The notes under the pieces are model-generated. The model was not told the origin of the DNA. It made no database searches and worked only from the letters and a program-made list of their open reading frames with translations. Positions 5,659-22,429 of a stretch of DNA of 64,000 nucleotides are shown here, piece by piece. Position 1 is the first letter of the stretch, and the number at the start of each line of letters is the position of its first letter. The position numbers and the translations under genes are program-made. Location of the stretch: the NCBI GenBank assembly GCA_965250155.1, contig OZ252291.1, positions 1,804,024-1,868,023 of the forward strand, read 5' to 3'. Origin of the DNA: Gemmatimonadales bacterium. Lineage in GTDB: Bacteria; Gemmatimonadota; Gemmatimonadetes; Gemmatimonadales; GWC2-71-9.

Positions 5659-6324
5659 ATGAGCGGCAAGAGCATCAAGACGCTGGCTGACCAGTTGTGG
5701 AAGAACCACGGCGTCTCGCTCATCACCACGTTCGACAGCGGGATCGTGCCGGGATCGGTGCTCGAGCGGCGGAGCTGGAACGACATCTCCCGGGTGGGGC
5801 ACCTGAAGGACGGGGTCAAGGCCGCAGATCTTCCTGACGTAGAAGGGCCCGTGCCCTGCATGCTGGCCGATTTCCGGCGCTCCCACGAGATGAACATCGA
5901 CGCCGCCCTGCGCCTGCTACAGCCCACCGACGCTGGCGCCGAGTCCCAGTTCAAGCGGGCCACCGAGGCCGTGGCCACGTTCGACGCTCCCGTCATCTAC
6001 AGCATGAGTCTCCTTGCTATCGAAGACGCCATAGAGTCCCAGCCGGCGCCCTTCTGGGACAGGGCGCTCGGCCAGTGGCTCAAGGACGGCAAGACGCGGG
6101 TCGTGTACCAGGTTATCCGGAGTCGGCTCACGTTCATCTTCCGCGGTGCGGGTGGCAGGGGACTCAACCTCAGGGCGGTGCTGGGGCCCCTCGGCGGCCT
6201 GGGCCTCGGCGGACAGTGGCGCTGGCGCAACGAGGGAACGATAGAGTCGAAGCGGGAGTTGGTGGTGGCGGTGGAGGCGGGGAAATACAACAATGGGAAG
6301 AAGCGGTTCGAGTCGGCTAGGTAG
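5659..6324 (+). CDS. gasdermin-like pore-forming protein candidate (tentative); otherwise hypothetical
   Basis: ATG at 5659 is preceded by AAAGGGGG. 221 aa with no enzymatic motif. Segment order GVSLITTFDSGIVPGSVLE / ADFRRSHEMNIDAAL / FKRATEAVATFDAPVIYSMSLLAIEDAI / VVYQVIRSRLTFIFRG / Gly-rich LGPLGGLGLGGQWRWRNEG / LVVAVEAGKY resembles bacterial gasdermin N-domains as I remember them. Confidence 0.35.
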   Translation: MSGKSIKTLADQLWKNHGVSLITTFDSGIVPGSVLERRSWNDISRVGHLKDGVKAADLPDVEGPVPCMLADFRRSHEMNIDAALRLLQPTDAGAESQFKRATEAVATFDAPVIYSMSLLAIEDAIESQPAPFWDRALGQWLKDGKTRVVYQVIRSRLTFIFRGAGGRGLNLRAVLGPLGGLGLGGQWRWRNEGTIESKRELVVAVEAGKYNNGKKRFESAR

Positions 6325-6368
6325 GGCGTGCGGAGCCGGGGCCGAGCGGTGGCGTTGGCTAACGGATG
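6106..6368 (+). repeat. proximal copy of a long direct repeat (3' end of gene 5659..6324 plus 44 nt); attL-like
   Basis: 6106-6138 and 6209-6368 recur at 22238-22429 in the same orientation. By my count there are about 8 mismatches and 1 indel over 193 aligned nt. Confidence 0.9.
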
Positions 6369-6582
6369 CCGACCCCATCATGAAGCTGCACCTCCGGGAT
6401 CTCACGGTCCTAGCGGAATTGAATGGGGTTCAGGGGGTCGCCGGTTGACGCCCGCTCCTCCCTCCCCCGCCGCTCGCGTCCGCTCTGTGCGCACTCGAAC
6501 CCGCGGTTCTCGGGCGCACGACGTGTCGAATCCGGCCGTCCCGACTGGGGTAAGTCAAACAATCAGAAGTAGTTACGAAATG

Positions 6583-6611
6583 AGCGGTCAGTGAATCGCC
6601 GCTCGTTTTTT
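6583..6611 (+). terminator. rho-independent terminator
   Basis: GAGCGG (6583-6588), an 11-nt loop, CCGCTC (6599-6604), then G + TTTTTT (6606-6611). Confidence 0.65.
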
Positions 6612-6617
6612 GTGCTA

Positions 6618-6635
6618 GTGTGCCAATAGTGTGCC
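6618..6635. promoter_or_regulatory. tandem motif GTGTGCCAATA-GTGTGCC, conserved at 24090-24107
   Basis: Identical 18-mer at two sites, each 100-135 nt upstream of a plus-strand start codon (res at 6769, K+ channel at 24210). Confidence 0.45.
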
Positions 6636-6768
6636 AAATTCCCTTGGCCGTCTCGCGGGTGACCGCGACCACTCCTATCTTAACCAACCATGCACCAGGG
6701 CGCCGGTTCTGGATTACCCTCGCCGACCGCCACAAGATCGAACGCATACTTAGTCGAAAAACAGCTCA

Positions 6769-20457: not shown

Positions 20458-20485
20458 CCTCGGCTTATATTGATAAATGCCGAGG
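20458..20485. promoter_or_regulatory. inverted repeat CCTCGGC-N14-GCCGAGG overlapping the abiEi RBS
   Basis: ATAAATCCTCGGC..ATAAATGCCGAGG. The 7-bp arms are at 20458-20464 and 20479-20485. GAGGA within the right arm lies 9 nt before the ATG at 20495. Confidence 0.4.
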
Positions 20486-20494
20486 AAATGTAAC

Positions 20495-21106
20495 ATGAAA
20501 TATACGAAAGTTGATGCTAGTAAAGCACTTAAGAGAGTCGCCGATTCCACCGGGGTTTTCCGCCCCCGAGATCTCGCGCGCTATGGCATCCCCCGAACCT
20601 ATCTCCAGCGGTGGGTCCAAGACGGCCTGCTTGAACGGGTAGGGTGGGGGCTATATCGGCTCACCAACCGGGCTCTCTCGGAGCACCAAACCCTGATAGA
20701 GGTGGCCAAACGAGTGCCAAACGGCGTCGTCTGCCTTCTTTCGGCCCTCCAATTCCACGGACTGGGCACACAGCTCCCCTCCCAGGTCTGGATCGCTATT
20801 GATCGAAAAGCTTGGAAGCCCGAGGTGAGGGATCTACCGATCCGAATCGTCCGGTTCTCGGGGCATAGTCTGACCGAGGGAGTCCAAGTGCATCGGCTCG
20901 ATGGCGTGAAGGTCAGCGTTTACGAGCCGGCCAAGACGGTGGCGGATTGTTTTAGGTACCGAAACAAAATTGGGCTCGATGTGGCAATCGAGGCCCTGCG
21001 GGATTGTCGTGACCAACGGCGATGCTCGATAGACGAGATTTGGCGCTATGCCAAGATCGACCGTGTCGCCAACGTGATGCACCCGTACCTGGAGGTACTC
21101 GGGTGA
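20495..21106 (+). CDS. abiEi: AbiEi-family type IV toxin-antitoxin antitoxin
   Basis: VFRPRDLARYGIPRTYLQRWVQDGLLERVGWGLYRL followed by LLSALQFHGL. The stop overlaps the next gene's start (GTGA). An alternative upstream ATG exists at 20477. Confidence 0.8.
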   Translation: MKYTKVDASKALKRVADSTGVFRPRDLARYGIPRTYLQRWVQDGLLERVGWGLYRLTNRALSEHQTLIEVAKRVPNGVVCLLSALQFHGLGTQLPSQVWIAIDRKAWKPEVRDLPIRIVRFSGHSLTEGVQVHRLDGVKVSVYEPAKTVADCFRYRNKIGLDVAIEALRDCRDQRRCSIDEIWRYAKIDRVANVMHPYLEVLG

Positions 21107-22005
21107 ACCAACGACAGGTCCGAAACCAGACTGCGTCCATACGCGACCGGCTGCGCAATCAAGCCCGCGAACGGAACGAAGAGTTTCAACTCATCCTCAC
21201 ACAGTACGCCATCGACCGACTGCTTTACCGTTTGAGTAGTTCGCCGCATGCCGACCGCTTCGTCTTGAAAGGAGCCATGCTCGTCAGCATCTGGGGCGGT
21301 GGCCGTTACCGTGTCACCAGGGATGTCGATTTGCTGAAGTTCGGTTCCAGCGAACTCGACCATATTGAGACCCTGTTTCGCGAGGTGTGCGAAGCTCCCG
21401 TCGACGTCGCGGACGGCATCACCTTCGATCCCGATTCCGTCCGCGCACAGGCGATCCGTGAACCGAACGAGTATGACGGCGTTCGGGTAAAGATGACAGC
21501 ATTTCTCGATAGGGCGCAGATTCTCGTGCAAGTGGATGTTGGGTTCGGGGACGCCATCACCCCATCGTCCGAGGTCATTGAGCTCCCCGGCTTTCTCGAC
21601 CTCCCCCGAACCCGGTTCCGGGCATATCCAACCACCCGCTTCGCGTTCAAGGGTCCTTCCCTCGCCTCGGCGGTGAAGGCGACGTTCGCTTGCAGGCGAA
21701 CAGGGTTGCCGGAGGATACTCCCGCTGGGCTCACCAAGCAGTTTCATGATGATGACGATAGGCGCCGACAGTGGGCCGCCTTTCTCGCTCGGACGCGCCC
21801 GGAGGCGCAACCACCGGGCCTACCAGATGTCGCTGGGTTGATCTGGCGGTTTGTCGGCCCGGCCGTTGCGGCCCTCCGCAACCCATCCGCCGACGCCGGA
21901 TCAGTCTTCAAGAAAAGTTGGCCCGCGGGTGGACCGTGGGAGGACAAAACACGACGCAAGTTTCCGAAAGGGCTTTCGAAGACCACATTGAAGCCGCACT
22001 CCTAG
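21103..22005 (+). CDS. abiEii: AbiEii/AbiGii nucleotidyltransferase toxin, apparently carrying an internal in-frame deletion
   Basis: GTG 21103 in GTGA overlap. SIRDRLRNQARERNEEFQLILTQYAIDRLLYRL, FVLKGAMLV, TRDVDLL and QVDVGFGD are family motifs. The expected ~30 aa between AYP and RFAFKGPSLASAVKATF seem absent. Family-like sequence ends at WPAGGPW (about 21945); the rest is read-through. Confidence 0.7.
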   Translation: MNQRQVRNQTASIRDRLRNQARERNEEFQLILTQYAIDRLLYRLSSSPHADRFVLKGAMLVSIWGGGRYRVTRDVDLLKFGSSELDHIETLFREVCEAPVDVADGITFDPDSVRAQAIREPNEYDGVRVKMTAFLDRAQILVQVDVGFGDAITPSSEVIELPGFLDLPRTRFRAYPTTRFAFKGPSLASAVKATFACRRTGLPEDTPAGLTKQFHDDDDRRRQWAAFLARTRPEAQPPGLPDVAGLIWRFVGPAVAALRNPSADAGSVFKKSWPAGGPWEDKTRRKFPKGLSKTTLKPHS

Positions 22006-22135
22006 CCGGCGGTTACCGATCCCGTTCGTCCGACGATTATGACCGCGCCCTCTGCCTCGACCCGCAGGTCGTAATCGATTTCCTCTACGCAACCCAGCCA
22101 AGACCTGGGTTCGACTCAAGGAGCACCTCAGCCTC
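21951..22135 (+). pseudogene. hsdR: stump of a type I restriction enzyme R subunit (hsdR N-terminus only)
   Basis: TTQVSERAFEDHIEAALLAGGYRSRSSDDYDRALCLDPQVVIDFLYATQP is a typical HsdR N-terminus. There is no ATG. After a 1-nt slip at 22100-22101 it continues TWVRLKEHL, then similarity stops. At most ~60 of ~1000 codons remain. Confidence 0.65.
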
Positions 22136-22237
22136 CCTCCGATCGACCTCCGCCTTTCCCTACCGCTGAGCACCCTTGTCGCCGATCGGCACTCGCAGCG
22201 CCAAGCCCTCGTGGGCCCGGTGCCTTGAAAGGGGGGC

Positions 22238-22429
22238 TACCAGGTTATCCGGAGTCGGCTCACGTTCATCGCGGACAGTGGCGCTGCCGCAACGAGGGAA
22301 CGATAGAGTCGAAGCGGGAGTTGGTGGTGGCGGTGGAGGCGGGGAAATACAACAATGGGAAGAAGCGGTTCGAGTCGGCGAGGTAGGGCGTGGGGAGCCG
22401 GGCCGAACGGTGTCGTTAGCTAACGGATG
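22238..22429 (+). repeat. distal, decayed copy of the 6106-6368 repeat; attR-like
   Basis: Same orientation. It lacks the 70 nt equivalent to 6139-6208 (not a multiple of 3). Weaker similarity continues to about 22475 versus 6369-6455. Confidence 0.9.

Follow-up and report, generated by a model that had tools for sequence, protein, structure and literature searches.

The stretch analysed here, 64,000 nt of contig OZ252291.1 from a Gemmatimonadales bacterium (referred to throughout as the window and numbered from its first letter), contains an island of about 16 kb, made up of anti-phage defence genes and enclosed by a direct repeat, R1, that duplicates the 3' end of a gasdermin-like gene, geneX. 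We give an even chance to the reading that R1 is the scar of a displacement, in which incoming DNA would have entered by homologous recombination at geneX and been joined illegitimately to the resident locus at its far end; the island was probably made without a dedicated site-specific integrase. What is seen here is a genuine scar of an island. Its general kind is already known, its place and its anchor gene being new; the island itself is otherwise ordinary and partly decayed. The coordinates of all features are collected in Table 1.

Pairwise comparison of the two ends of the island revealed that positions 6106-6138 recur at 22238-22270 in direct orientation with 33 of 33 nt identical, and that the likeness is resumed by 6209-6340 against 22271-22402 (98% identity) and by 6339-6368 against 22400-22429 (90% identity). 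The distal copy (R1b, 22238-22429) lacks exactly the 70 nt at 6139-6208, a deletion that destroys its geneX reading frame, and carries one private non-synonymous change. To the right of the gap, two mismatches separate it from the proximal copy (R1a) over 116 coding nt; six mismatches and one indel follow in the 44 nt 3' of the stop codon. Given this length and identity, the duplication is far beyond chance. A preliminary description of this DNA, made from its letters, had reported the recurrence with about eight mismatches and one indel and had regarded the distal copy, for its missing 70 nt, as non-coding debris; we obtained the same count, and the broken frame bears out the second point. 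It had also named a case that would speak against a displaced 3' end, namely that the distal copy belonged to a longer paralog. Comparison of 6000-6105 with 22130-22237 scored at shuffle level, and no likeness was found to the left of 22238; R1b thus consists of a 3' fragment alone and does not belong to a longer paralog. The fainter similarity that had been noticed beyond the repeat was at chance when 6369-6455 and 22430-22475 were compared directly (42 of 300 shuffles scored equally well), but a related contig, L020, showed that the stretches beyond 6368 and 22429 are divergent versions of one spacer over about 20-30 nt.

The two copies differ in 2 of 149 coding nt and in 7 of 44 nt of the tail, a contrast that resembles the one between strains: the window differs from the related locus L014 in 4 of 116 coding nt and 13 of 44 tail nt (11+2), and from L015 in 5 of 116 and 12 of 35. 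Duplication in situ followed by neutral decay would place at least 63% of the differences in the coding part; the observed share was two of nine (P=0.016), or two of eight when the indel is left out (P=0.034). In addition, contig L020 carries a full-length geneX followed by the distal-type tail and matches the window up to 22445, the contig ending before any Smr homolog. Because of this contrast between coding part and tail, and because the distal tail stands behind a full-length gene in L020, the distal fragment belonged to a working gene for the greater part of the period after the two copies diverged. R1a and R1b thus appear to behave as alleles of two strains and not as a duplicate and its decayed twin. 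Both share T6122, which occurs in no sampled relative, and T6259, which occurs in two.

The window was compared with about 15 related loci obtained by protein-family searches of genomes and metagenomes, each of them seen over 10 kb or less. The segment 5547-6324, comprising geneX and its upstream region, is 87-97% identical in L001, L002, L010, L011 and L020, all of them with unrelated flanks, and the blastn matches of L001, L010, L011 and L020 begin at 5546-5552. In full-length relatives the likeness ends between a few and about 85 nt past the stop codon, in at least three unrelated types of tail. Most close relatives of geneX lie on contigs under 2 kb, and the locus therefore breaks assemblies. 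Several loci contain orphan 3' fragments of geneX, with left limits at 5906 (L019), 6117 (L004), 6169 (L014), about 6185 (L015-L018) and 6278 (L013 and L001), and with right limits, the window included, at 6326, 6333 and 6368 or beyond. All orphans share only 6280-6324 and the stop codon, a 45-nt core that reads AAATACAACAATGGGAAGAAGCGGTTCGAGTCGGC(G/T)AGGTAG. Internal lesions of geneX were found at 6031-6123 in L001 and at 6093-6103 in L020.

The genes that accompany the orphans differ from locus to locus and comprise AbiE, a protein kinase, DUF1016, an HNH protein, helicase-PLD, SNF2-NOV_C, GmrSD-SLFN, DUF1156, BrxB (a component of the bacteriophage exclusion system, BREX) and a DUF6079 protein. 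The eight related loci checked against Pfam represent at least six different junction contexts, and the element-side flanks of different orphans had nothing in common. The minimal case is L013, where a single DPPIV_N-like (beta-propeller) gene is surrounded by a 63-nt repeat, 94% identical, of which 47 nt are the end of geneX and 16 nt are additional. In L015-L018 the end of this same DPPIV_N-like gene is fused to the gasdermin-like gene within the 9-mer GCTGGGGCC, which is common to the donor-type sequence (L013, L001) and to geneX at 6180-6188; we take this joint to be a microhomology junction. Fragments of geneX form tandem arrays in L001 and L013, and in L001 the 5' part of geneX occurs twice together with its upstream region (871-1074 and 6926-7074, 97-100% identical). 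An exact empty site, in which geneX is followed directly by the Smr gene, was not found among the related loci. From these comparisons, the region behind geneX can be described as a hot spot for defence genes that varies between strains of this Gemmatimonadota lineage. A further candidate junction, the alternative C-terminus of protein P0002, was rejected: there the gene is joined to its own reverse complement (L021 4-734 and 724-1120), probably as a chimera of assembly or amplification.

Recombinase genes were sought at several levels. Among the ORFs of at least 80 aa between 5.6 and 24.2 kb none was detected. The same result came from most of the island's unannotated gaps, translated in six frames (21960-22530 in four of the six, with the spacers 14722-14937, 20328-20476 and 22855-22986 left out), from the larger ORFs of the remaining window and from the Pfam-checked ORFs of L001, L004, L011, L013, L014, L015, L016 and L018. 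The window contains no tRNA or other Rfam feature, and among 2.9 million viral contigs geneX, a 23-nt core and the 18-nt repeat R3 (see below) were all absent. The ORF and six-frame scans thus came out as empty as the preliminary description had found the island to be of integrase or recombinase ORFs. It had ascribed this lack to the deletion of the recombinase of a site-specific element, which finds no support: no recombinase or remnant of one was seen in the island, no recombinase in the Pfam-checked ORFs of the eight loci, and the starts of the orphans are scattered. What stands of the attachment-site footprint that it had proposed is the gene, the foreign cargo and the displaced, decaying 3' end; the site-specific element with a lost recombinase is not supported, one joint being a microhomology junction.

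The displacement that we favour could have proceeded as follows. Incoming DNA, consisting of the geneX copy of a close strain, its tail and about 15.6 kb of cargo (res-mod-helicase, PDC-S11, XRE-M78, DUF2779, AbiE and an hsdR gene already truncated), would have recombined homologously in or upstream of geneX, and its non-homologous far end would have been attached, by an illegitimate join, to position 6106 within the resident gene. The incoming copy would have been kept intact as 5659-6324. The resident copy would survive only from 6106 on, as 22238-22429, with its own tail, the Smr gene, PIN/Phd, R2b and R3b, and this remnant would later have lost 70 nt. Which way the DNA moved, where it crossed over, how it entered the cell (by transformation or otherwise) and whether the joint between 22237 and 22238 used microhomology are matters of inference. 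Displacement would explain why the proximal gene is intact and why the distal copy, truncated at its 5' end, has a tail and downstream genes of its own, and also the arbitrary cut of hsdR, the scattered breakpoints of the relatives, the microhomology joint and the missing recombinases. The right edge of the island is the hsdR stump, cut at an arbitrary point, which is a sign of an illegitimate join. Three marks of homology-facilitated illegitimate recombination are likewise present: a conserved anchor with differing flanks, 5'-truncated remnants heading older modules, and allelic copies. Recombination by RecA between the copies of R1 could delete the island, and the gene would remain intact if the crossover fell to the right of 6209.

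Several points weigh against this reading. Homology-facilitated illegitimate recombination is described in PMC5361080 and PMC3240628 as rare where measured. The 10 kb or less seen of each related locus leaves room for a more distant recombinase. Both copies share T6122 and T6259, which are rare or absent among the sampled relatives, and this requires a donor that was related very closely. The repeat R2 is left unexplained by the model. Finally, four lesions (window, L004, L001 and L020) cluster within about 30 nt at 6093-6124, which could point to a specific site of cleavage or recombination. At 6119-6128 the six relatives aligned have a perfect 10-bp palindrome, GAGCCGGCTC, which reads GAGTCGGCTC in the window copies (also at 22251-22260). 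Restriction at this palindrome was considered as the cause of the cluster and dropped, GCCGGC not being avoided in the window, which has 53 such sites.

The topology is also exactly that of attL-island-attR, with direct repeats from the target gene flanking the island. An alternative is thus a site-specific integrative element similar to the cis-mobilizable elements (CIMEs), for which the last ~45 nt of the gene would serve as att core and whose recombinase would have been deleted or act in trans. Such elements bring a replacement 3' end, and their successive integrations pile up in tandem. We consider this account unlikely, though worth serious attention: the tandem fragment arrays of L001 and L013, the sharing of 6280-6324 and the stop codon by all orphans (a possible core), the clustering of breakpoints at 6093-6124 and the hsdR stump, as a truncated right end of the island, would all agree with it. 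It would, however, need several unrelated families of elements, each without a recombinase. The island and the Pfam-checked ORFs of the eight related loci, with their six or more junction contexts, yielded neither a recombinase nor a remnant of one. The lengths (45-420 nt) and left limits of the repeats vary from case to case, the element-side flanks of the orphans are mutually unrelated and tails of at least three types occur. The L015-L018 joint lies in microhomology, the core has neither inverted-repeat nor folded structure (z=-0.4), the viral contigs were empty, and the unrelated insertion bracketed by 3432-3516 and 4353-4437 (see below) would require yet another absent integrase. A variant that we consider improbable is that the last ~45 nt of geneX are a docking site at which integrase-less defence cassettes (restriction-modification, AbiE, BREX component, SNF2/DUF1156 genes and single genes) are stacked by an unlinked recombinase acting in trans. 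Were it true, it would amount to a lineage-wide platform for anti-phage cassettes in Gemmatimonadota, integron-like but with a protein-coding 3' end as attachment site.

The same topology could be produced without any integrase by a Campbell-type insertion, in which a single RecA crossover with a circle bearing a 3' piece of geneX (for example an island that had looped out at its own repeats in a different cell) duplicates that piece. For RecA a repeat length of 63-263 nt suffices, and the allele-like divergence would fit import from another strain, but a microhomology junction and a truncated gene followed by unrelated DNA at the right end of the island would be left unaccounted for, and the shared T6122 and T6259 suit a resident or near-resident sequence better than a circle from elsewhere; we regard this route as improbable. 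An origin in situ, either by local tandem duplication or as an eroded second paralog with the island unrelated to the repeat, is very improbable. L001 truly has two copies of the 5' part of geneX (97-100% identical), and the window copies share variants rare or absent in the sampled relatives; against this, nothing resembles geneX to the left of 22238, the divergence of coding part and tail speaks against neutral decay (P=0.016-0.034), and L020 shows the distal tail to be a separate allele. That a metagenome assembly strung together the haplotypes of two strains at a variable locus is the least likely reading of all. The source appears to be a metagenome-type contig, the locus breaks assemblies, as the short contigs of the close geneX relatives show, and among the related contigs L021 is plainly an inverted chimera; a switch of haplotypes, however, would not give a 5'-truncated copy joined to unrelated DNA, and similar orphans occur in independent assemblies and contexts (L004, L013, L014, L015-L018 and L019).

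Defence-island hot spots and minimal mobile elements are exchanged by homologous recombination in conserved flanking genes; with a double crossover of this kind no duplicated gene end is left. The window resembles them in that one position holds a different defence cargo in each strain, without mobility genes, but it has only one conserved side (geneX), both the left flank of geneX and the right flank being variable. A parallel is offered by the orphan arrays at effector-immunity clusters of type VI secretion systems (T6SS) and the displacement of Rhs/CdiA C-termini, whose proposed mechanism is homology-facilitated illegitimate recombination (PMC5361080); PMC3240628 reports the experimental demonstration of this process in several bacteria. 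As in the T6SS/Rhs arrays (PMC5361080), a conserved upstream anchor receives modules by horizontal transfer without a dedicated recombinase, the old 3' end is pushed downstream as a 5'-truncated orphan that heads the older module, and arrays grow. Unlike in those arrays, the variable part of the window starts after the stop codon, so that the anchor protein is unchanged, the cargo consists of self-contained anti-phage systems instead of toxin domains with immunity genes, and the anchor is a gasdermin-like gene in Gemmatimonadota. With the integrative elements that target 3' ends, including CIMEs (PMC5704250), the window has in common the direct repeats of a 3' end around the cargo, the intact gene and the possibility of tandem accretion; it differs from them in that no integrase was found in it or in the related loci examined, the limits of the repeats vary, one joint is in microhomology and no conserved element ends are seen.

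The gain and stacking of defence islands free of mobility genes is still argued mostly from the conservation of flanking genes. Here the scars (tails of allele type, truncated anchors and one joint in microhomology) are legible. They point, in a phylum that has been little studied, to homologous recombination on one side combined with illegitimate recombination, and a process described for toxin-immunity loci would be extended to whole anti-phage systems. The main value of the locus is as a clear and testable example of the accretion of defence cargo, that of the gasdermin-like family being secondary.

The anchor gene was characterized by profile searches. GeneX matched the PADLOC profile of bacterial gasdermins (bGSDM) with E=8.4e-8 over residues 10-209 (profile positions 7-214 of 257) and NCBIfam prok_gasdermin with E=1.2e-5 at 25 bits, below the cut-off of 100. 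A profile of eight geneX relatives matched the solved Vitiosangium gasdermin (PDB 8sl0/7n51) at E of about 0.01, and geneX had no match in Pfam. An AlphaFold model built from eight sequences had a predicted local distance difference test (pLDDT) value of 37.5, too low for use as to fold. Judged by these matches, and with an NCBIfam score under the cut-off, geneX is probably a divergent bacterial gasdermin-like gene. Homologs that are 50-96% identical have its length and C-terminus; the whole family, 15 proteins found among 5.8 billion, ranges from 221 to 226 aa. Most bacterial gasdermins conserve an N-terminal cysteine for palmitoylation (10.1101/2021.06.07.447441). No family member of geneX has a cysteine in its first 60 residues, geneX itself beginning MSGKSIK. 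The profile match reaches position 214 of 257, and geneX ends 12 residues past it, which leaves no room for a C-terminal inhibitory peptide (~20-30 residues); no protease gene was found within 5 kb of geneX. GeneX is like the described bacterial gasdermins (10.1101/2021.06.07.447441) in matching their profiles over nearly its full length and in sitting among defence genes, and unlike them in the cysteine, the inhibitory peptide, the neighbouring protease and the sub-threshold NCBIfam score. A small gasdermin-like family devoid of these three features may be of interest to gasdermin researchers. In L014 the geneX orphan fragment is preceded, at about 1.4 kb upstream, by a trypsin-like peptidase gene of 447 aa that runs in the opposite direction (56-1399, minus strand); this gene could once have been a protease partner, or its presence could be a coincidence. 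In a metagenome-assembled genome of Acidobacteria, a geneX homolog (L003 10001-10654) follows SMODS-SLATT_4 and pYEATS genes and precedes genes for a PG-binding protein and an alpha/beta hydrolase.

The island has a G+C content of 0.58, compared with 0.61-0.62 in its flanks. The closest relatives of its helicase outside the own genome are 72% identical or less; the few lower-ranked matches that bear organism names all belong to other phyla, and a homolog search found neither a close relative in sibling genomes nor a second copy of the island. Because of the lower G+C content and the lack of close helicase relatives, the cargo between the R1 copies is foreign, and several of its genes are broken. 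A Mod methyltransferase and a Res helicase-nuclease within one operon constitute a type III restriction-modification system, and an AbiEi regulator followed by an AbiEii nucleotidyltransferase in adjacent ORFs an AbiE system. Positions 1-220 of PDLC04909 match ORF 14938-15681 and positions 209-341 match ORF 15456-16016. The hsdR stump resembles the N-termini of annotated type I restriction endonucleases (tblastn). ORF 16166-16522 had no match, and two short ORFs at 18319-18829 had none in Pfam. Of the cargo listed in the preliminary description, res-mod-helicase, XRE-ImmA, DUF2779, AbiE and the hsdR stump were recovered, and the PIN gene placed at 18319-18829 was not; 14938-16016, moreover, is one frameshift-split PDC-S11 gene and 16719-17012 a fragment of DUF6946. 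At the right limit of the variable region, the trkA module shares only 24168-25930 with five other contigs, some of them megabase-sized, and a search by trkA synteny on these five contigs yielded no empty site. In L005 (325-6744) trkA lies between inverted copies of an IS3-family element, in the manner of a composite transposon.

Table 1. Features of the geneX locus and the adjoining island (window positions).
Feature	Positions	Strand	Remarks
Upstream region of geneX	5546..5658	+	similarity to all relatives begins here, after REP-like palindrome 5478-5552
geneX, intact, predicted divergent bacterial gasdermin-like protein, 221 aa	5659..6324	+	PADLOC, NCBIfam and PDB profile matches
R1a, proximal copy: last 73 codons of geneX + 44 nt	6106..6368	+	
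Proximal-type tail, continued	6369..6409	+	also in L014 (2844-3084 = window 6169-6409), absent from distal copy
Terminator-like hairpin + T-run downstream of geneX	6584..6609	+	
R3a, exact 18-mer GTGTGCCAATAGTGTGCC	6618..6635	+	second exact copy at 24090
res, BPTD_3080-family (type III-like) restriction endonuclease, intact	6769..9804	+	NF046055 1355 bits (cut-off 800); Pfam ResIII + RE_endonuc
mod, type III DNA methyltransferase, intact	9827..12628	+	PADLOC MTase_III 1425 bits; Pfam N6_N4_Mtase
UvrD/GajB-like helicase	12625..14721	+	Pfam, PADLOC
PDC-S11 candidate defence gene (NucS-like nuclease), frameshift-split	14938..16016	+	PADLOC PDLC04909
DUF6946 C-terminal fragment, gene remnant	16719..17012	-	Pfam
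XRE helix-turn-helix (HTH) + M78 (ImmA/IrrE) peptidase + UPF0175 fusion, RmrA-like	17076..18302	+	
DUF2779 / TM0106-type RecB-like nuclease	18849..20327	-	
AbiEi-AbiEii pair	20477..22005	+	ORFs 20477-21106 + 21022-22005; PF13338 + PF08843
hsdR 5' stump, ~60 codons, one frameshift, cut where R2a starts	~21937..22128	+	tblastn, E about 1e-6
R2a, 68-nt repeat with two CCGATCGG palindromes	22129..22196	+	78% identical to 23980-24047
R1b, distal orphan copy of geneX 3' end, non-coding	22238..22429	+	without 70 nt
Distal-type tail, continued	22430..22446	+	on full-length geneX in L020 (847-1019 = window 22271-22445)
Smr-domain gene, downstream DNA of the putatively displaced allele	22522..22854	-	
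Phd/YefM antitoxin + PIN toxin	22987..23690	-	
R2b	23980..24047	+	68-nt partner of R2a
R3b	24090..24107	+	exact copy of R3a
TrkA-type K+ channel module, right limit of variable region	24168..25930	+	92-95% identical at DNA level to relatives, flanks unrelated

The window also contains two shorter repeats, R2 and R3. The elements follow each other in the order R1a, R3a, cargo, hsdR stump, R2a, R1b, Smr, PIN/Phd, R2b, R3b and trkA, so that a unit running from R1 to R3 is present twice (6106-6635 and 22238-24107), as expected for two versions of one locus in tandem. The end of R2, a 15-mer, is exact at both sites; R2a abuts the hsdR stump and R2b lies 42 nt before R3b. Its two CCGATCGG palindromes are able to pair as a hairpin. 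Single-stranded DNA folding of the R1 core (z=-0.4) and of R2 gave no significant structure, and attC-like sites are unlikely, since both lack a significant fold. Two exact copies of R3 were found in the window against an expectation of 0.05 even with three mismatches tolerated. R3 consists of a GTGTGCC(A/C)A motif repeated in tandem at a spacing of 11 nt, and it could be a protein-binding site. A hairpin precedes each window copy by about 10-40 nt; res begins about 150 nt after R3a, and trkA about 100 nt after R3b. R2 and R3 were absent from the related loci in which they were sought, except for one R3 at the cut end of L001, where 11426-11447 match the context of R3b over 22 nt, about 2 kb downstream of a gene-end fragment. 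The regions beside R1, R2 and R3 had no hidden extension, their scores being at shuffle level.

Palindromes resembling repetitive extragenic palindromes (REP), of the form CCCTCCTCCC...GGGGAGGGG or CCCCTCTCCCC...GGGGAGAGGGG, occur at the borders of gene modules, in the window at 2395-2430, 5478-5513 and 5517-5552 (repeat family D5) and in L001 at 744-796, 3430-3458, 3566-3609, 5308-5344, 6783-6827 and 7798-7826. The similarity of every relative to the window begins directly after such a palindrome.

Elsewhere in the window, ORF 2997-3509, which codes for a signal-peptide protein with a low G+C content at third codon positions (GC3, 0.44), contributes its final 26 codons and the next 7 nt to an 85-nt direct repeat (3432-3516 and 4353-4437, 84 of 85 nt identical). 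The insert between the copies (3517-4352, 836 nt) holds one gene for a multi-pass membrane protein (3712-4350, minus strand) with a GC3 of 0.83, and no recombinase was found near this repeat-bracketed insert. Judged from its layout, it is of the same design as the R1 scar. A 95-nt repeat (27288-27382 and 28780-28874, 84% identical) relates the 3' end of an amidohydrolase gene (27281-28681, minus strand) to a short ORF (28785-29027, minus strand); this may be a fragment of a neighbouring paralog.

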